Origin: Candidatus Levyibacteriota bacterium
GTDB lineage: Bacteria; Patescibacteriota; Microgenomatia; Levybacterales; UBA12049
Assembly: GCA_016199085.1 (NCBI GenBank)
Contig: JACQHJ010000001.1
Span: forward strand, 3,334 to 67,333
Direction: 5' to 3'
DNA: 64,000 nt
The translations under genes and the position numbers were made by a program. The notes below the pieces were generated by a model. That model made no database searches, was not told where the DNA came from, and was given only the letters and a program-made list of their open reading frames with translations. Every line of letters starts with the position of its first letter. The stretch's first letter is position 1. Below are positions 807 through 58,141 of the stretch, in pieces.

Positions 807-2579
807 ATGGGCACGATGGATGAGGTTTCCCAAATAAGAGAAAAAATAGATTTAGTCTCCTTTATTTCAGAATATCTTCCCTTAAAGAAAATGGGAAGAA
901 ACTTTACGGTTGTCTGTCCTTTTCATAGTGAAAAAACACCATCTTTTGTCGTCTCTCCAGAGAGACAGATCTGGCATTGCTTTTCATGTTCGAAGGGTGG
1001 GGACGCGTATACCTTTTTAATGGAATACGAAAACATAGAGTTTGGCGAAGCTTTGCGAATCTTAGCCAAAAAAACCGGTATTGAACTTAGGCAATCAGAA
1101 TTTAGGAAAGGCCAGTCTTCTTTAAAAGAAAAACTTTTTGAAATTAATAAGCTTTCCTTAAAGTTTTATAAATATATCTTACTTGAACATAGCGCCGGAA
1201 AACCTGCAAGAGATTATCTTTTGGAAAAAAGAAAGCTAAATAAAGGCATTATTGATACTTTTGATTTAGGTTTTTCTCCAAACACTCAAAGCTCATTATC
1301 TGACTATTTGGTAAAGAAAAAAGGTTTTAAGCCTCAAGATCTTTTGGACGCCGGAATTTCAATTCAAAGAAACGGGAAACTGATGGATTTTTTCAGAAAC
1401 AGGATCATTTTTCCCCTTTTTGACCACAGGGGAAACGTTTCCGGTTTTTCAGGAAGAAGTCTAAATGAAACTGACATGCCAAAGTATATTAATACCAAAG
1501 AGACCCCTGTTTACCACAAGGGAAGTTTATTCTTCGGACTTAATTTGGCCAAAGAAGAGATAAAACAAAAAGCTGATGTCATTATAGTTGAAGGTGAATT
1601 TGACACAATTTCTCTATTTATGGAGGGAATTAAAAATGTAATTGCTATTAAAGGAACCGCTCTTACCGAAGAGCAGGTTACTCTAATCTCAAGATTTAGT
1701 CCAAAAGCTACACTTTGCTTGGACCAAGACGAAGCCGGATTTGAGGCAACCAAGCGAAGTTTACTTAACTTAGAGAAAAAAGGGTTAACAACCAATACGA
1801 TTGTTTTGGAAAATGCCAAAGATCCGGATGAAGCAATTAAAAAAGACCCAATTGCATTTAAAAAAGCGTTAAAAGAAGCAGTCAATATTTATGACTTTTT
1901 AATTTCAGCATATCTTTCTCAAAATCCAAAAGACACAATTGAAGGAAAGAAAAAAATCACCCAAAACCTTCTTCCTTTATTCTCACAGATCTCAAACGAA
2001 ATCATTAAAGAACACTACATTAAAAAATTAAGCACAAATTTGGATACTTCAATTGAAAGTATTAATAGGGAAATTGAAAAAATACAAAAACTTACCCAGG
2101 AAAAGATTGTCCCGCAATCTACAGACAAAAGACCGAGAAGGGAAATCTTAGAAGAATATTTACTTTCCTTAATTATTCAAAGCCCAAAACAAAAAGAAAC
2201 CTTGGAAGAAAACAAGAAGCTATTAAAAGACTATAAATTTGAGGTTCCTGCTTTTTTAAAAATCCTTGACAGCCTAAGTGTTTATTTTGCCAAAAACCAA
2301 AATTTTGACAATAGGCTTTTTTCAAATTACCTAGATAGCTCTCTGCAAAAATCATTTGATGTCTGCTTTTTGTATCCTCTTCCAAAACTAGATACATTTG
2401 AAAAATGGAGCCTGGAGGCAAAAAAAGTCAGCTTTGAGCTCTTAAATCTCTATGCCAAAGAAAGATTAAAAGAAATTACAGATGAGATTAAAAAAACTGA
2501 AGATAAAGAAAGCGCCAAAGCCCTAAAGCTAAAAGAAGAGTTTTCTGCCGTTTTAAGACTCCTTAGTCAAAAAGCCTGA
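807..2579 (+). CDS. dnaG: DNA primase
   Basis: N-terminal CHC2 zinc finger (CPFHSEKTPSF...HCFSCSKGGD) and a Toprim region (IIVEGEFDTISL...LCLDQDEAG). It sits directly upstream of rpoD, the conserved dnaG-rpoD arrangement. The true start may be the ATG at 816, which is leaderless after TGCTACAAT. Confidence 0.93.
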   Translation: MGTMDEVSQIREKIDLVSFISEYLPLKKMGRNFTVVCPFHSEKTPSFVVSPERQIWHCFSCSKGGDAYTFLMEYENIEFGEALRILAKKTGIELRQSEFRKGQSSLKEKLFEINKLSLKFYKYILLEHSAGKPARDYLLEKRKLNKGIIDTFDLGFSPNTQSSLSDYLVKKKGFKPQDLLDAGISIQRNGKLMDFFRNRIIFPLFDHRGNVSGFSGRSLNETDMPKYINTKETPVYHKGSLFFGLNLAKEEIKQKADVIIVEGEFDTISLFMEGIKNVIAIKGTALTEEQVTLISRFSPKATLCLDQDEAGFEATKRSLLNLEKKGLTTNTIVLENAKDPDEAIKKDPIAFKKALKEAVNIYDFLISAYLSQNPKDTIEGKKKITQNLLPLFSQISNEIIKEHYIKKLSTNLDTSIESINREIEKIQKLTQEKIVPQSTDKRPRREILEEYLLSLIIQSPKQKETLEENKKLLKDYKFEVPAFLKILDSLSVYFAKNQNFDNRLFSNYLDSSLQKSFDVCFLYPLPKLDTFEKWSLEAKKVSFELLNLYAKERLKEITDEIKKTEDKESAKALKLKEEFSAVLRLLSQKA

Positions 2580-8181: not shown

Positions 8182-8253
8182 TCCGTGATAGCTCAATGGT
8201 AGAGCAGGTCGCTGTTAACGACAAGGTTCTAGGTTCGAGTCCTAGTCACGGAG
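8182..8253 (+). tRNA. tRNA-Asn (anticodon GTT)
   Basis: Cloverleaf folded by hand. Acceptor TCCGTGA/TCACGGA, D-arm GCTC...GAGC, anticodon stem GGTCG/CGACA with loop CTGTTAA (anticodon GTT), T-arm CTAGG-TTCGAGT-CCTAG, discriminator G. CCA is not encoded. The overall layout matches bacterial tRNA-Asn. Confidence 0.85.
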
Positions 8254-32928: not shown

Positions 32929-33507
32929 ATGTCTAAGAATTTAATTCCATTAATAATCGTTGCAGCTGTTATAATTATCGGAGCATTAGGAGTATATTTA
33001 GTCATGAACCAATCAAGTACAAATACAGATACCAATACCAACGTTAATTCTTTACAGAAAGCAGCTGGAAATACAAACCCTGCTTCTCCGACTCAAACCG
33101 GATCTCCGACTCCGGTTCCTACAATAGTTAGCTCTCAAACACTACCCGATGGTTTAAAAATCGATGATTATGCAATTGGAGACGGAGCTGAAGTAAAAAC
33201 AGGAGACACGATAGTTATGCACTATACTGGGACTTTTGAAAACGGGCAGAAATTTGATAGCTCTGTTGATAGAAATCAGCCGTTTGAAACAAAAATCGGA
33301 GCAGGCCAGGTTATTAAAGGATGGGATGAGGGAGTAATTGGAATGAAGGTAGGGGGCAAAAGAAGACTTACTGTTCCTGGCTCTTTAGCTTACGGAGAGC
33401 AGGGAATACCGGCACAAGATCAACAAGGTAAGGCAATTCCCGGACAGTATGCGATTCCTCCAAATGCAACGCTGATTTTTGAACTAGAATTATTACAGAT
33501 TAAATAA
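32929..33507 (+). CDS. secreted FKBP-type peptidyl-prolyl cis-trans isomerase
   Basis: Signal anchor, a Thr/Pro linker, then an FKBP domain (IVMHYTGTFENGQKFDSS...IKGWDEGVIGMKVGGKRRLTVPGSLAYG). Confidence 0.9.
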   Translation: MSKNLIPLIIVAAVIIIGALGVYLVMNQSSTNTDTNTNVNSLQKAAGNTNPASPTQTGSPTPVPTIVSSQTLPDGLKIDDYAIGDGAEVKTGDTIVMHYTGTFENGQKFDSSVDRNQPFETKIGAGQVIKGWDEGVIGMKVGGKRRLTVPGSLAYGEQGIPAQDQQGKAIPGQYAIPPNATLIFELELLQIK

Positions 33508-34495
33508 TCTGGGGTTTTAAATTTCCTACCAAACTTAATTTATCTTCAAGCTCCTCTTTGGTTAATAATCCTTGTTGAGCTCCTATTTTTTGGATAACGC
33601 TTGCAGAATTAACAGTTCCCCAAAGCATTGCCTCAGTCAAAGATTTTCCGTTTAAAATTGCCGTAATAAAGCCCGCATTGTACCCATCTCCCGCTCCTGT
33701 TTTTTCAACTACGTCTACTTTTAAAATATCTAAAAAGTGCGCTATATTATTTTGATCAAATGCAAACGATCCATTGCTGGAGTCGGTGATAATCACATTT
33801 TTTGCCCCAAGACTTTTTAAGCCAAATAATAATTTTTTAATATCGGTCTGGTCGTTACCCAAGTGCTTATCCGTTCCGAAAAGGATTTTTAATGCTTCCT
33901 GTTTATTAACAAATAAATAATCAGACATCTCGATTATTTCCATAACTAATCTTGATTTCTCATCAAGCTGCAGGGTCCCAGGATTAAAGAAAAGTTTTGA
34001 GCCGGTCTTTTTAACAAAATCCAAAGTTTTCTCGTATGCATTATGCCACTGTTTGCCAAGACTTGATAAATAGACAAATCTTGCAGAAGAGTTATCAAAT
34101 TCAAATAAATGTTGTCTTTCAACGTGTTCAACCAGAAGAGTCCTTTCGCCTTTAAAACTAAGACAGACTGAAAAAGAAGTGGATTTGTCTTTATCTTGTC
34201 TAACGAAAGCCGTATTGATATTTTCTTTTGCCAGCCTTGTCAAAATAAAGCTTGAAAACTCATCTCCGCCAATTTCTGCACAAAGACCGACCTTCTTACC
34301 AAGCCTTGAAACACCAACTGCCGTATTGCATGCATTTCCGCCAATATCTTTTAAATAGTTTTCTACATGTATTTTGTAACCGTAATCTATTAACAACTTT
34401 GACTTATCTTGATTTAAATCAAAGTGGGGATCGTCTTCGGGAATTTTTAAGAAGATATCTAATACCGCATCACCAATACAGAGAAGATCAAGCAT
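33500..34495 (-). CDS. PfkB-family carbohydrate kinase (ribokinase-like)
   Basis: GGNACNTAVGVSRLG, and a C-terminal VVEKTGAGDGYNAGF matching the GAGD anion-hole motif. Confidence 0.85.
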   Translation of the reverse strand: MLDLLCIGDAVLDIFLKIPEDDPHFDLNQDKSKLLIDYGYKIHVENYLKDIGGNACNTAVGVSRLGKKVGLCAEIGGDEFSSFILTRLAKENINTAFVRQDKDKSTSFSVCLSFKGERTLLVEHVERQHLFEFDNSSARFVYLSSLGKQWHNAYEKTLDFVKKTGSKLFFNPGTLQLDEKSRLVMEIIEMSDYLFVNKQEALKILFGTDKHLGNDQTDIKKLLFGLKSLGAKNVIITDSSNGSFAFDQNNIAHFLDILKVDVVEKTGAGDGYNAGFITAILNGKSLTEAMLWGTVNSASVIQKIGAQQGLLTKEELEDKLSLVGNLKPQII

Positions 34496-34541
34496 AACTA
34501 TATGTTAACTTAAATTATAGGCTCTGTACAGTAACCTTAAA

Positions 34542-34569
34542 TTGACTTCAACCTATAGTATGGTATAAT
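34542..34569 (+). promoter_or_regulatory. near-consensus sigma70 promoter TTGACT-N16-TGgTATAAT
   Basis: Read directly from the sequence. The -10 element ends 6 nt before position 34576. Confidence 0.6.
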
Positions 34570-34575
34570 CAGCCC

Positions 34576-35013
34576 ATGAGTCTAGATGAACGCCTAAGAA
34601 GAGTGGGAAAGGGTAGTCATCTTCGCGGCAGTATTACAGATGTAAGTCTATATGGTCCCCCAAGACAAGGAAGGAGACACGAGGGGGAAGCTGCTTCCGT
34701 TTCGCTTTTTGACCAGCAACCAAATCTACCCACTGAAGCTTCCCAGTCAGACGAACTCTATTTTCGTGCCGGAACGCCCTTTGCTAAATCTGTGCCTAAA
34801 ACACAACGTGAATTTGACGCATTGCCCTGGTGGTTCTTACCCTTTGGTCATACAGTAAGCCCAGGTAGGCTGGAACCAGACGAAAAGGTAACAACAAAAA
34901 TGGGTAATTTTGTTAAGATACACATACACGATATGGGAGATATTAGTAATGGATGGATAAATGTAGATAGTGGTGTACCAATTCCTCCTTTAAAAGGCCC
35001 CTTACTTAAATAA
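34576..35013 (+). other. GC-enriched 440-nt segment behind a strong promoter: candidate structured ncRNA or atypical (foreign) leaderless ORF of 145 aa
   Basis: Local GC is clearly above the window average. Overlapping ORFs are open in three frames. The encoded protein is G/P/R/E-rich, unlike the K/I/N-rich local proteome. Nested complementary segments are present (CCUGG..CUUAC..GUAAG..CCAGG; CCCCC..GGGGG). Confidence 0.4.
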
Positions 35014-35030
35014 GAAACTTTTATCAGCAC

Positions 35031-35059
35031 TTGACGTTATATAACATAATCTTTAAAAT
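35031..35059 (+). promoter_or_regulatory. promoter TTGACG-N17-TAAAAT for the LUD-domain gene (leaderless)
   Basis: Read directly from the sequence. The ATG at 35066 lies 6 nt after the -10 element. Confidence 0.5.
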
Positions 35060-35065
35060 TTCCTT

Positions 35066-35680
35066 ATGGATAAATGGTCAAAACCTGCTGATAGAAAGTC
35101 AATTCGGAAGGCAATGGATGCGTTAAGGAAAAATAAATTTAATGTGTTCTTGGTCGAAACGCCAGAAGATGCTAAAAAGAAATTCTTTGAGATAGTGCCA
35201 GAAGGCGCATCCATAATCAATAGTTCCTCAAAAACCCTTGACTCAATTGGAATAGCAAAAGAAATAAACGAATCAGGTAAATACGACAGTGTTAAAAATA
35301 AACTTAACTCAATGGATAGAAAAACACAGCATAGGCAAATGCAGCAATTAGGAAGTGCTCCCGAGTGGGCAGTAGGAAGCGTTCATGCTATTACTAAAGA
35401 CGGGCATGTTTTAATTGCTTCAAGGTCGGGAAGCCAGATCCCAGGATACGCATATGGCGCAGATCATGTAATCTGGGTAGCAGGAATACAAAAGATAGTT
35501 GAAAATATAAATGAGGGGATTAAGAGAATCTTTGAGTACTGTCTTGTCTTAGAAAGCAAAAGAGTACAGAAAGCTTATGGAATGGAAAAAAGCACGGTTT
35601 CAAAAATATTAATCTTTAATGAAGAAATAAATCCTGACAGAACGACAATTATTTTAATAAACCAGGCAATAGGCTTTTGA
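35066..35680 (+). CDS. LUD-domain protein (lactate-utilisation LutB/C-like, DUF162)
   Basis: 204 aa. VFLVETPEDAKKKFFEIVPEGASIINSSSKTL...GADHVIWVAGIQKIV matches the LUD fold pattern. Confidence 0.6.
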   Translation: MDKWSKPADRKSIRKAMDALRKNKFNVFLVETPEDAKKKFFEIVPEGASIINSSSKTLDSIGIAKEINESGKYDSVKNKLNSMDRKTQHRQMQQLGSAPEWAVGSVHAITKDGHVLIASRSGSQIPGYAYGADHVIWVAGIQKIVENINEGIKRIFEYCLVLESKRVQKAYGMEKSTVSKILIFNEEINPDRTTIILINQAIGF

Positions 35681-35720
35681 TGACTTTGACATTAGACCAG
35701 TTAACTATTATCATTTAATA

Positions 35721-36206
35721 ATGAAAATCATAAATTTATTTTTAGATAAACTTCTTTTAGAAAACATTGTCCTTGCTCACTGTGACATTCCTTGTGGTAT
35801 TTATGATCCACATAACGCTCAAATTGGAGCCCACACCGTAATTAGAATGACCCAGATGCTACAAGATCTAAAACGAGAAGATGAAGTAAAAGCAGAGCAT
35901 GATATAGCAAGACTTACCCATGTAAAAGAAGAACACGGGCATTTGGTCGAAGACGAACTGGGAACTTTAGAAAATGATTATTTTAAACCCGAACATTTCC
36001 AAGCACACCCTAACCTTAAAGACCTACTGGAAAAGGCAGTTAAACTTTCAATTAAGGTAAGACAAAACATTGATATGGAATCTGCCAAAGAACTTTTAGA
36101 AACGGTTCTACTTATCTCAGAAATATTCTATAAGACAAAAAATGTTACCCCAGTTAGAGTAAAAAGTGTCTATCCAACTGAGGGTGAAATCGTTACCTAC
36201 AAATAA
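35721..36206 (+). CDS. sodN: nickel superoxide dismutase precursor
   Basis: After a 19-aa propeptide the sequence reads HCDIPCGIYDP, which is the Ni-hook motif (HCxxPCGxY). Length is 161 aa. Confidence 0.85.
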   Translation: MKIINLFLDKLLLENIVLAHCDIPCGIYDPHNAQIGAHTVIRMTQMLQDLKREDEVKAEHDIARLTHVKEEHGHLVEDELGTLENDYFKPEHFQAHPNLKDLLEKAVKLSIKVRQNIDMESAKELLETVLLISEIFYKTKNVTPVRVKSVYPTEGEIVTYK

Positions 36207-36496
36207 TGCTTCTTTTGGCAAAATACAAAATCACAGGACACAGTATGGAACCTCTTTTAAAAAACGGAGATAAAATTATCGCAACTGGCCTTTTTTATTT
36301 ATTTCAATCACCTAAGATTAATGATATAGTTGTTTTTAAAGATAGCAAAGGCAAAGTATTTATTAAAAGGATAGAGAAGATTAATAAAGGAAAATACTTT
36401 ATGTTAGGAGAAAACAAAAAAGACAGCTTTGACAGTAGAAAATTTGGGGAAATAGTAAGAAATCAAATACTTGGAAAATTTATTTATAAAATATAA
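36206..36496 (+). CDS. sodX: NiSOD maturation peptidase (signal-peptidase-I/S26-like)
   Basis: ITGHSMEPLLKNGD (the S26 catalytic-Ser box) and a C-terminal GENKKDSFDSRKFG. It is translationally coupled to sodN, with the stop and start adjacent. Confidence 0.75.
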   Translation: MLLLAKYKITGHSMEPLLKNGDKIIATGLFYLFQSPKINDIVVFKDSKGKVFIKRIEKINKGKYFMLGENKKDSFDSRKFGEIVRNQILGKFIYKI

Positions 36497-37008
36497 TGCT
36501 ATTATCAGTTCTTTTGCTTTCAGTTATTGCATTTTTACTTATTCTTCTTTCTATGGTTTGGCCGCCTGATAGTCCTTGGGCTCCGTGGTGGAGAACAAAT
36601 ACAAAAACAGCAAAAGCGATTTGTAAGTTAGCTGATATTAACAATAAAGATATAGTTTATGATTTAGGTTGTGGAGATGGTGAAGTATTGATTCAATCTG
36701 CAAGAAGAGGTGCAAAAGGCGTTGGAATAGAGATTGATCCCTTAAGAGTAATAATCGCAAGGATAAGAGTATTTATTAACGGATTTGATGAGAAAATTGT
36801 TATAAAAAGAAATAATTTCTTTAATGAAAAATATAAAGATGCTACGGTTATTATTGTTTATTTAATTCCAAAGACATTAGACAAACTTTTGCCAAGGTTT
36901 AGGAAGCAATTAAAAAAAGGAACGAGAATCGTAAGTTACCGCTATGAAATGAAAATGCCTTTAAAAAAGGAAGATAAAGAAAACCACATAAGGCTTTATG
37001 TCATTTAA
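36496..37008 (+). CDS. class I SAM-dependent methyltransferase (membrane-anchored)
   Basis: Motif I reads VYDLGCGDGEVLIQSA. N-terminal TM. Confidence 0.75.
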   Translation: MLLSVLLLSVIAFLLILLSMVWPPDSPWAPWWRTNTKTAKAICKLADINNKDIVYDLGCGDGEVLIQSARRGAKGVGIEIDPLRVIIARIRVFINGFDEKIVIKRNNFFNEKYKDATVIIVYLIPKTLDKLLPRFRKQLKKGTRIVSYRYEMKMPLKKEDKENHIRLYVI

Positions 37009-57643: not shown

Positions 57644-58141
57644 TTACTTAATCTTGTTTAAAAATGAATCCATGTCTTTTGTATTTTTAAGAATAAAAAT
57701 TCTTTTTGTGTCTTTATGTTTACTCAAAATTTCTAATATTGTTTTTCTAGAAAAAAGTAAGCATTTTTTTATTAGCATAAAAGTTAATCTCTCTTTTAGA
57801 TACTCGGGCATATCGGGTCTGGTGGTTCCTCTATAGGAAAGTCTCCTTTTTAAAATACGATATAAAGATAACCATTTAGGTAGGTCAAGAAAGATAACCA
57901 CATCAGCGGAATTGATTCTTTTATCAAGTGTTCTTTTATAGTTTCCATCCATGATCCACTTTTCTCTATTAATAAATTCTTCAATTATCTTATCCCATTC
58001 TTCACGGCTGACCTGGATAAAATTCTTTTTATGAAAATATGTATCAAGATGGATAACGGGAAGATTTAGTTTCTTACCAAGTATTTTTGAAAACGTAGAT
58101 TTTCCTGATCCTGTATTACCAATTACGATTATTTTAAGCAC
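57644..58141 (-). CDS. P-loop NTPase (topology-modulation/adenylate-kinase-like AAA family)
   Basis: A Walker A motif GNTGSGKST within IIVIGNTGSGKSTFSKIL. 165 aa. Confidence 0.7.
   Translation of the reverse strand: MLKIIVIGNTGSGKSTFSKILGKKLNLPVIHLDTYFHKKNFIQVSREEWDKIIEEFINREKWIMDGNYKRTLDKRINSADVVIFLDLPKWLSLYRILKRRLSYRGTTRPDMPEYLKERLTFMLIKKCLLFSRKTILEILSKHKDTKRIFILKNTKDMDSFLNKIK

Follow-up and report, generated by a model that had tools for sequence, protein, structure and literature searches.

Behind a near-consensus promoter in the stretch of DNA analysed here (64,000 nt; hereafter, the window) lies an element of 440 nt that is rich in GC within an AT-rich genome, and a preliminary description of the locus proposed it as either a structured non-coding RNA or a foreign leaderless open reading frame. 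The question is therefore whether the element acts as an RNA or encodes a protein, and, in the latter case, where the gene comes from. The evidence described below makes it very likely that the element contains a real protein-coding gene, which belongs, though very divergent, to a small protein family of one Levybacteria sub-lineage (CPR/Patescibacteria) and has predicted leaderless expression. The features of the locus are listed in Table 1.

Table 1. Positions of the sequence features in and around the element (window coordinates)
Feature	Position	Strand	Remarks
-10-like TAACAT of the divergent pfkB	34502..34507	-	6 nt before the pfkB ATG at 34495
-35 hexamer TTGACT	34542..34547	+	TTGAC kept in the window, L001, L003, L006, L007 and L010
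Promoter spacer AACCTATAGT, possible operator	34550..34559	+	
Extended -10 TGgTATAAT	34561..34569	+	TGnTATAAT in all orthologous slots, also in L012-L015
ATG start codon and predicted transcription start site (5'-AUG, leaderless mRNA)	34576..34578	+	6 nt after TATAAT
Protein-coding ORF, 145 codons	34576..35013	+	GenBank hypothetical protein HY344_00230, Candidatus Levybacteria MAG
Shadow ORF, 68 aa, frame +2	34652..34858	+	Not a gene; 5-13 stops in orthologues
Motif 1, YFRAGTPFAKSVPKT	34759..34803	+	Aligned to family-core F-x-x-G-x-x-(L/F)-Y-x-x-PPT
Shadow ORF, 60 aa	34848..35030	-	Not a gene; every orthologue has stops in all minus-strand frames
Motif 2, TTKMGNF	34891..34911	+	Aligned to family-core T-(E/D/N)-(I/M)-G-(I/L)-F-(G/A)
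Motif 3, GWINVDSGVPIPP	34951..34989	+	Aligned to family-core W-(L/V)-D-x-x-R-x-(I/V)-x-(P/S)
LUD-domain gene promoter TTGACG-17-TAAAAT	35031..35059	+	6 nt before ATG 35066; conserved in L006

Composition and open reading frames of the element

The GC content of the element was compared with that of the window on two scales. The 200-nt windows starting from 34581 to 34681 reached 0.50, the maximum of the whole 64 kb (mean 0.358, sd 0.049), and the markedly higher GC reported in the preliminary description was thus correct on this scale. On the 440-nt scale, however, it was limited: the value of 0.441 lay only in the top 3.7%, and five other regions equalled or exceeded it. The last ~120 nt of the element were at the genome level. 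When the codon positions of the ORF were analysed separately, GC1, GC2 and GC3 were 0.57, 0.46 and 0.30, as compared with 0.44, 0.34 and 0.29 in the 61 other ORFs. The excess was confined to positions 1 and 2 (z 2.4 and 2.0), while GC3 (0.303 against 0.293 +/- 0.040 for the genome, z 0.25) was native, and the codon-usage score for synonymous codons was also inside the range of the genome. The high GC of the element is therefore explained by the amino-acid composition of its product, with the silent positions keeping the AT bias of the genome. The product, a hydrophilic protein of 145 residues, is enriched in P (9.7%), G (9.7%), R (6.9%), H and W. It had been described as rich in G, P, R and E, and this was right for the first three residues but not for E (5.5% vs 5.2%).

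Three overlapping open frames had been noted, and all of them were found, of 145 and 68 aa on the plus strand and of 60 aa on the minus strand (Table 1). Frame +1 of the ORF contains no stop over 145 codons, as compared with 3-15 stops in each of the other five frames, and only 13 of 100,000 composition-matched shuffles left this frame open. For the 68-aa frame +2, the similarity among orthologues consisted of one 17-residue HSP (E 0.004) and nothing else.

Promoter geometry and the predicted leaderless start

The promoter TTGACT-16-TGgTATAAT, reported to end 6 nt before 34576, was confirmed at this position, and with a score of 11/12 it was the best promoter-like site in the region 33500-36500. 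TTGACT and TATAAT (34564-34569) are separated by a 16-nt spacer with TG at 34561-34562, and the six nucleotides CAGCCC lie between TATAAT and the ATG at 34576. In the proposed mechanism, this strong sigma-70-type promoter would drive the ORF, and because its last base lies 6 nt before the ATG, transcription would begin at the A of the ATG; the transcription start site should be this A, as judged from the standard sigma-70 geometry. The transcript would have neither a leader nor a Shine-Dalgarno sequence, and the ribosome would initiate at the 5'-terminal AUG.

The same geometry was observed at other genes of the window. A -10 hexamer exactly 6 nt before the start was found for 6 of the 62 ORFs, as compared with 0.3 expected, and these include the Pfam-confirmed LUD (35066) and Ni-SOD (35721) genes and three others. 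The gap between the -10 hexamer and the start was 6-9 nt in 12 of the 62, and only 9 of the 62 had Shine-Dalgarno-like 4-mers. In the orthologous slots, which are described below, the gap to the ATG was conserved at 6-8 nt. Because the neighbouring bona fide LUD and Ni-SOD genes have exactly this geometry and the orthologues conserve it, the mRNA of the ORF is very probably leaderless. From the sequence geometry, leaderless starts appear to be common in this Levybacteria genome.

Leaderless protein genes of bacteria have been mapped genome-wide in Mycobacterium, Streptomyces and Deinococcus. The gene analysed here resembles them in the -10 located 6 nt before the ATG, the predicted +1 at the A of the start codon, the lack of a Shine-Dalgarno sequence and the recurrence of this geometry at other genes of the same genome. 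Unlike those mapped cases, the generality of leaderless starts in Levybacteria is deduced from the spacing of promoters and start codons. No description of leaderless transcription in CPR/Patescibacteria was found in the searchable literature. The frequent leaderless geometry in this Levybacteria genome is relevant to how genes are called and start sites annotated in Patescibacteria.

The promoter spacer was also highly conserved. Its 8-nt core CCTATAGT was identical in nine related loci, in which the ORF bodies have diverged to about 30% amino acid identity, and the full 10-mer AACCTATAGT was seen in six loci compared. The 10-mer plus the -10 occurs only once in the window. When metagenomes were scanned with the conserved pattern of promoter plus start, only the L001 genome again (L004) and the unrelated contig L005 were returned; in the latter, the same 18-mer lies ahead of a different gene, and this was treated as coincidental. 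L001 and L004 derive from Hainich H43 samples. On the pfkB side, the block ATATGTTAAC is conserved in the window, L001, L003, L006 and L010, has one substitution in L007 and is degenerate in L012 and L013. The downstream gene had been described as having its own promoter, which proved right: TTGACG-17-TAAAAT ends at 35059, 6 nt before the ATG at 35066.

The syntenic slot and the protein family

Ten distinct related contigs cover the slot divergent from pfkB; nine of them carry an ORF there, and the tenth, L006, has a 39-codon remnant. Contigs with a pfkB of 59-77% identity to the one in the window contain an ORF of 110-178 aa at the same place and in the same orientation, preceded by TGnTATAAT, 6-8 nt and ATG. 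These slot ORFs had no match in Pfam. They contain no stops in frame +1, as compared with 1-19 in the other five frames, follow the order GC1 > GC2 > GC3 throughout, and all of those measured showed a GC excess of 7-9 points. The gene heads a same-strand Ni-SOD/LUD redox cluster (LUD, Ni-SOD, SodX protease and methyltransferase), and the region between the slot gene and LUD differs among the relatives, with HxlR, as in L001 and L007, DUF1003 or nothing. The frame of only 39 codons in the decayed slot of L006, the closest relative, indicates that the protein is dispensable, and the ORF of the window could likewise be on its way to decay. The slot ORFs of more distant relatives (L012-L015) show no detectable similarity.

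The core of the family consists of unnamed small Levybacteria proteins encoded next to pfkB, in L001, L003, L007-L009 and L010. The core members match one another in frame +1 only, with E values of 1e-8 to 1e-20 in tblastn and BLASTP over 74-142 residues. In DNA, their best blastn HSPs were 16-40 nt with E values of 4e-5 to 0.8. A 36-nt deletion distinguishes L003 from L001 and is in frame. The ORF of the window is more divergent: its BLASTP similarity to the family was weak (E 0.009-0.19), and tblastn of the ORF against the family gave nothing. Its protein scored 10 bits against the HMM of the core, above all 3000 shuffles and in a collinear alignment, and its summed semi-global score against the family (z = 4.5) was reached by none of 1000 shuffles, with three collinear motifs (Table 1). 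The slot, the orientation and the promoter are all the same as in the core family. We thus assign the ORF to the family because of the synteny, the shared promoter and the shuffle statistics, the BLAST similarity being weak. In the decayed slot of L006, a possible out-of-frame remnant of motif 2, ATGGGAAACTTT, was seen.

The amino acid identity within the family is 26-38%, where the neighbouring genes reach 69-84%, and the gene evolves several times faster than its neighbours. The dN/dS ratio was 0.46 for L001/L003, with only 18 differing codons, and 1.5 for L007/L008, with only about six differences, numbers too small to demonstrate purifying selection; the substitutions were saturated in the distant pairs. 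In the two close pairs, the synonymous divergence was below that of the neighbouring genes, and this low divergence could hint at a constraint at the nucleotide level. L001 and L003 also share a block in which their identity is unusually high, which suggests recombination at this place.

Taxonomically restricted (orphan) small proteins that evolve fast are often intrinsically disordered. The family shares with such proteins the confinement of its homologues to a narrow lineage without a domain match, the hydrophilic composition with about half disorder-promoting residues, the low AlphaFold confidence, the rapid divergence and, from the truncation in L006, the dispensability. Unlike in many orphans, its position in the genome is strictly conserved, its near-consensus promoter is highly conserved, and the members of its core show clear conservation at the protein level. 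The element is an ordinary, if very fast-evolving, orphan small protein gene, and its family is so far known from one sub-lineage of Candidatus Levybacteria only. The locus clearly exemplifies a gene that keeps its position while evolving extremely fast, behind a promoter far better conserved than the coding sequence, and it could be of use in work on the turnover of orphan genes in reduced genomes.

Alternative readings and the possible function of the product

The element could instead be a structured RNA, either a new large non-coding RNA or a divergent RNase P RNA, 6S RNA, tmRNA or SRP RNA, in which the open frames are incidental. The strong and conserved promoter, the highest local GC of the window, the three complementary segments and the low synonymous divergence of the two close pairs would all fit such an RNA. 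However, a scan of the whole window with Rfam 15 at the gathering score gave only a tRNA (8182..8253) and nothing at the element, and a relaxed scan of 34400-35150 gave four chance-level matches of 12-14.5 bits (E >=5), none of them to RNase P, tmRNA, 6S, SRP or any large non-coding RNA. These scans also leave nothing to sustain the weak resemblance to the P18 region of RNase P that had been mentioned for one stretch. Folding of the 440 nt was worse than that of dinucleotide shuffles on both strands (z +1.35 and +0.96 for the plus and minus strands), and two orthologues gave z of +0.55 (L007) and -0.05 (L001). The nested complementary segments of the preliminary description do exist, but as local hairpins they showed no stability beyond that of dinucleotide shuffles (z +1.22, +0.09 and -1.13). 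RNAalifold on six orthologues yielded an essentially absent consensus (-1.75 kcal/mol, 16 pairs over 462 columns), with a power limited by the poor DNA alignment. A terminator-like hairpin inside the ORF (34680-34712) was also considered and was not better than shuffles (z -1.1); the terminator-like sites in the scan were fewer than expected by chance. Furthermore, the strict periodicity of GC along the codon positions, the single stop-free frame in ten independent slot sequences and the similarity of orthologues, which is significant in protein, in one frame only, and little or none in DNA, all speak against an RNA. The locus thus has only superficial features in common with large non-coding RNAs such as RNase P RNA, 6S, tmRNA, OLE, GOLLD, ROOL and raiA, namely a strong promoter followed by a few hundred nt, a locally GC-rich composition in an AT-rich genome and complementary segments; it differs from them in that it matches no covariance model, lacks any thermodynamic excess and shows no conserved structure, and in its codon periodicity and the conservation of the protein. 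We therefore regard a structured RNA as extremely unlikely, and the candidate put forward in the preliminary description is not upheld. The main value of this analysis is this clean negative result: a locally GC-rich segment that follows a strong promoter, within the AT-rich genome of a CPR bacterium, looked like a candidate non-coding RNA and proved to be an orphan gene for a protein.

If the element is translated, it could still be a recently acquired gene from a GC-richer source, by horizontal transfer or as a remnant of a mobile element. The GC above that of the surroundings, the variable gene content between the ORF and LUD among relatives, the hint of recombination between L001 and L003, and the finding of only the protein itself among 5.8 billion protein clusters and 1.84 billion representatives are compatible with this origin. 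The sole non-self match, P0002 (phmmer against the 1.84 billion representatives, E 4.5e-6), was rejected; it is a 698-aa tandem-repeat translation, probably of a eukaryotic satellite, in which one weak 40-residue match recurs eight times and so adds up to the score. On the other side, the ORF has the GC3 of its host and carries its surplus of GC in the first two codon positions only; for this reason it is not recently foreign. The identical codon-position pattern and the 7-9 point excess in all slot ORFs measured, together with the syntenic position and the native-type leaderless promoter conserved across Levybacteria, also speak against acquisition. No relatives of the ORF were found in the phage, plasmid and IMG/VR (viral contig) collections, and no part of the element is duplicated elsewhere in the window, as would be looked for in a repeat or a diversity-generating retroelement. 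A foreign origin is accordingly judged highly improbable, so that, of the proposal of a foreign leaderless ORF, the ORF stands and its leaderless expression is very probable, but not its foreignness. Somewhat less improbable, yet still unlikely, is that the frame is non-functional or decaying, being translated as noise or as a proto-gene, and that the promoter is the conserved feature, serving read-through into LUD and sodN or the regulation of pfkB. The far better conservation of the promoter, including its spacer, than of the ORF body, the 39 codons left in L006, the two dN/dS values, the slot ORFs of more distant relatives without detectable similarity, and a stretch from the stop codon of the ORF to the LUD promoter in which no intrinsic terminator was noted are consistent with this explanation. 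Against it, ten slot sequences are stop-free over 110-178 codons from a leaderless ATG, with a chance of 0 to 1.8e-4 each; the core family shows similarity in protein only (E 1e-8 to 1e-20), while the DNA has diverged to near randomness; the 36-nt indel keeps the frame; and LUD and sodN have their own promoters.

Taking the ORF as a functional gene, we searched the protein of the window and its family in Pfam, NCBIfam, PHROGs, PADLOC and the profiles of PDB sequences, and no match was obtained. AlphaFold2 predicted no confident fold, with pLDDT values of 32 for the window protein (two-sequence alignment) and 37 for P0003 (single sequence). About half of the residues of the product are disorder-promoting, and its relatives are basic, with a pI of about 10.4-10.7. 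One tentative possibility is a basic, for the most part disordered protein with a polyanion, for example nucleic acid or the ribosome, as its binding partner. Alternatively, and with equally low confidence, it may act with the redox-stress genes of the same strand, LUD, Ni-SOD, the SodX protease and the methyltransferase. His-rich or ATCUN-like N-termini were considered as a nickel link to Ni-SOD, and this candidate was rejected with the finding that L001 and L003 lack any histidine. Going further, the gene might encode a CPR protein selected for its composition, disordered and acting in stress or in nucleic-acid binding, or a dual-function transcript with a constrained RNA, under the control of an operator in the spacer. 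This idea is based on the near-invariant leaderless promoter, including the spacer, and on a protein that would be free to diverge beyond recognition (L012-L015) or to be cut short (L006), with a constraint mainly on its basic, hydrophilic and probably disordered composition, and the low synonymous divergence might suggest the dual-function transcript; we hold it to be rather doubtful. The tryptic peptides of the predicted product include AGTPFAK, EFDALPWWFLPFGHTVSPGR and IHIHDMGDISNGWINVDSGVPIPPLK.

Coding signal and start of the GC-rich element

The GC-rich element is a lineage-restricted, fast-evolving small protein gene, already annotated as hypothetical, and its start is probably leaderless; what the preliminary description had observed is largely real. 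The 145-aa product of the main frame, designated here the orphan gene, is identical to the deposited hypothetical protein HY344_00230 (Candidatus Levybacteria MAG, 143-kb contig). Three overlapping open frames, two on the plus strand and one on the minus strand, are present as described. The main frame has no stops, as compared with 3–15 in the other five frames, and only 13 of 100,000 composition-matched shuffles kept such a frame open. The GC contents of its three codon positions were 0.57/0.46/0.30, against means of 0.44/0.34/0.29 for the remaining 61 long ORFs in the window, and this periodicity is a coding signature.

The high GC content reported for 440 nt holds for the peak, which reached 0.50 in 200-nt windows starting at 34581-34681 and is the maximum of the 64 kb (mean 0.358, sd 0.049), but at the 440-nt scale the value was 0.441 (top 3.7%), and the last ~120 nt are at the genome level. 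The excess GC lies at codon positions 1 and 2 alone (z 2.4 and 2.0), while GC3 has the genome value (z 0.25), and therefore the GC-richness reflects the amino-acid composition and not the foreign origin that had been proposed. The product contains 9.7% P, 6.9% R and 9.7% G, as compared with 4.0%, 3.3% and 6.1% in the other ORFs, and H and W are also raised.

The proposed promoter, TTGACT-N16-TGgTATAAT ending 6 nt before 34576, is present and is the top sigma-70-like site in 33500-36500 (11 of 12 matches, extended -10). In the standard sigma-70 geometry the -10 element spans -12 to -7, and thus the 6 nt between TATAAT and the ATG would place +1 on the A of the ATG. The downstream LUD-domain gene has its own promoter, as had been noted, and its spacing and that of the Ni-SOD gene are identical to the spacing of the orphan gene, which supports the earlier suggestion of a leaderless ORF. 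In 6 of the 62 long ORFs of the window, the gap between a good -10 hexamer and the start was exactly 6 nt (0.3 expected), a -10-like hexamer ended 6–9 nt before the start in 12 (~1.5 expected), and Shine-Dalgarno-like 4-mers were found upstream of only 9. From these counts, we infer that the leaderless start is characteristic of this genome and not a sign of foreignness. The literature searched contained no paper describing this geometry in CPR/Patescibacteria, and leaderless genes, apparently frequent in this CPR genome, are one of two points of wider interest.

Features of the orphan-gene locus and of its counterparts on contigs from other genomes (L001–L015)
Feature	Location	Strand	Detail
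-35 TTGACT	34542-34547	+	16-nt spacer next
Promoter spacer AACCTATAGT	34550..34559	+	includes palindrome CTATAG
Extended -10	TG 34561-34562, TATAAT 34564-34569	+	then 6 bases CAGCCC, ATG at 34576
Orphan gene, main ORF	34576..35013	+	145 codons
Overlapping shorter frame	34652..34858	+	68 aa
Overlapping shorter frame	34848..35030	-	60 aa
LUD-domain gene	TAAAAT end 35059, ATG 35066	+	spacing as in orphan gene
Ni-SOD gene	TATCAT end 35714, ATG 35721	+	spacing as in orphan gene
Divergent pfkB		-	TAACAT + 6 nt + ATG, also fits leaderless geometry
Examples of leaderless geometry	25614, 32517 (-), 34576, 35066, 35721, 57644..58141 (-)
LUD, Ni-SOD, SodX-like S26/S24 peptidase, PrmA-like methyltransferase	35066..37008	+	same-strand cluster, in this order
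Orphan-LUD interval	window 35014..35065; L001 3646..3972; L012 1589..2053; L015 1534..1983
Slot ORF, L001 (= L004)			122 aa
Slot ORF, L003			110 aa
Slot ORFs, L007, L008, L009			145 aa
Slot ORF, L010			139 aa
Slot ORF, L012			123 aa
Slot ORF, L013			178 aa
Slot ORF, L014			118 aa
Slot ORF, L015			152 aa

A structured non-coding RNA had been offered as the other reading of the element, and the computational evidence, as far as it goes, refutes it. At gathering thresholds, Rfam 15 returned nothing in the whole window but a tRNA at 8182..8253 (+, 67.5 bits), and a permissive scan of 34400-35150 gave four matches to snRNA, lncRNA and sRNA families at 12–14.5 bits, which are chance matches (E of 5 or more). 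The element folded no better than its dinucleotide shuffles (z +1.35 and +0.96 for the plus and minus strands), nor did two orthologous elements (z +0.55 and -0.05), and the RNAalifold consensus of six orthologues, 462 columns long, had 16 pairs and an energy of -1.75 kcal/mol. The complementary segments listed in favor of an RNA do exist, but as three hairpins their z values against shuffles were +1.22, +0.09 and -1.13. Within the ORF, codons 36-45 (34680..34712, +) include a hairpin that resembles a terminator, CGAGG.GGAAG-CUG-CUUCC.GUUUCG (-11 kcal/mol), with CUUUUUG after it; the hairpin was no better than shuffles (z -1.1), and L001 contained no equivalent on inspection.

The slot divergent from pfkB in related genomes

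Searches with the window protein found only itself in 5.8 billion clusters (word index) and in 1.84 billion representatives (full phmmer), apart from a single extra match, P0002, which is a repeat-inflated artefact. Relatives were reached through the neighbors, the LUD protein leading to the syntenic contig L001 and the pfkB protein to graded orthologues of 59–86% identity. Every contig covering the slot divergent from pfkB, except L006, has an ORF without a Pfam match there; L011 ends inside the promoter and so does not cover the ORF. Each slot ORF is preceded by TGnTATAAT and 6–8 nt before the ATG, and has no stops in frame +1 (1–19 in the other frames) and GC1 > GC2 > GC3. In the eight loci measured (window and L001–L013), the slot CDS was 5–9 GC points above its own locus.

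The slot proteins of L001/L003, L007–L009 and L010 form a core family with mutual BLASTP similarity (E 1e-7 to 1e-20). The similarity is confined to frame +1 against frame +1, with one 17-residue HSP elsewhere (E 0.004); blastn was marginal (best HSPs 16–40 nt, E 4e-5 to 0.8), and a clean in-frame 36-nt deletion separates L003 from L001. The window protein is far more divergent than the core members (BLASTP E 0.009–0.19). It matched the core-family HMM collinearly at 10 bits, more than any of 3000 shuffles of its sequence, and its summed semi-global alignment to the family had z = 4.5, reached by 0 of 1000 shuffles. Three collinear motifs, F-x-A-G...P-(P/K)-T, T-x-(M/I)-G-x-F and W-(I/L/V)-(N/D)-x-x-(S/R)-x-(I/P)-x-P, are aligned between them. 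Judged from these alignments, the window protein is a member of the core family despite its strong divergence. For L012–L015, which are more distant, no similarity of the slot ORFs to the core, or among themselves, could be detected.

The point of insertion between the orphan gene and LUD varies, with an HxlR-type regulator in L001, L003 and L007–L010, a DUF1003 protein in L012 and L015, and nothing in the window and L006; LUD itself is missing in L013 and L014.

Divergence of the gene and conservation of its promoter

Between genomes, the orphan protein is 26–38% identical where pfkB, LUD and SodN are 69–84% identical. L006, whose pfkB is the closest to that of the window (86%), has kept both flanking promoters intact. 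The reading frame that starts at the corresponding leaderless ATG has just 39 codons there, in a slot of 323 nt (1529..1851, minus strand of the locus) as compared with about 570, and what may be an out-of-frame trace of the MGNF motif is visible. The gene appears to be decayed or truncated in this closest relative, and is therefore dispensable.

In two close pairs, dN/dS of the orphan gene was 0.46 and 1.5, on few substitutions, and its dS was below that of its neighbors in both (0.115 against 0.54–0.57; 0.010 against 0.04–0.10). An RNA-level signal behind the low dS was looked for, and none was found. Between L001 (3160..4000) and L003, a block of ~840 bp is 93–100% identical where the flanking genes are 82–93%, with dS of 0.115 and 0.19 inside and 0.40–0.57 in the flanks. 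The pattern points to recent recombination or to a local constraint of another kind; recombination is the simplest explanation, because the block spans the adjacent HxlR gene and spacers as well as the orphan gene.

Across related loci, the promoter is conserved far above the ORF body; the former is almost invariant and the latter hyper-divergent, a contrast that is the other of the two points of wider interest. Although the sequence of a promoter spacer is not usually constrained, the 8-nt core CCTATAGT is identical in nine related loci (L001, L003, L004 and L006–L011), as is the extended -10, and six aligned loci show the full 10-mer. With two extra spacer bases and the -10 attached, the motif is unique within the window. 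The conserved spacer may be an operator. The 18-mer CCTATAGTATGGTATAAT, with 6 nt and then ATGAGT after it, also occurs on the unrelated contig L005 (ORJL010884059.1, 1498..1527; GC 0.44), directly after a tRNA gene and before an unrelated 255-aa ORF likewise beginning MSL; this is probably a coincidence.

Product and gene neighborhood

The slot proteins are without exception hydrophilic (GRAVY -0.2 to -0.7) and basic (pI 9.5–10.7; 8.1 for the window protein), and about half of each consists of disorder-promoting residues. Pfam, NCBIfam, PHROG, PADLOC and PDB-sequence searches gave no match for any slot protein tested. The AlphaFold2 pLDDT values of 32 and 37 are consistent with disorder, but also with the very shallow alignments used. 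The orphan gene heads the same-strand run of LUD, Ni-SOD (Sod_Ni, 3.8e-34), peptidase and methyltransferase genes, which looks like an oxidative-stress neighborhood. Its product might be disordered and basic and either bind a polyanion or play a part in the redox-stress context, although any specific version of such a role is at best rather unlikely. The cluster is conserved in L001, L006–L010 and L012–L015, apart from the LUD gene in two of them, and across pfkB from the cluster, relatives carry additional genes for FKBP, a DUF360/holin_4_2 protein and, upstream, MsrA.
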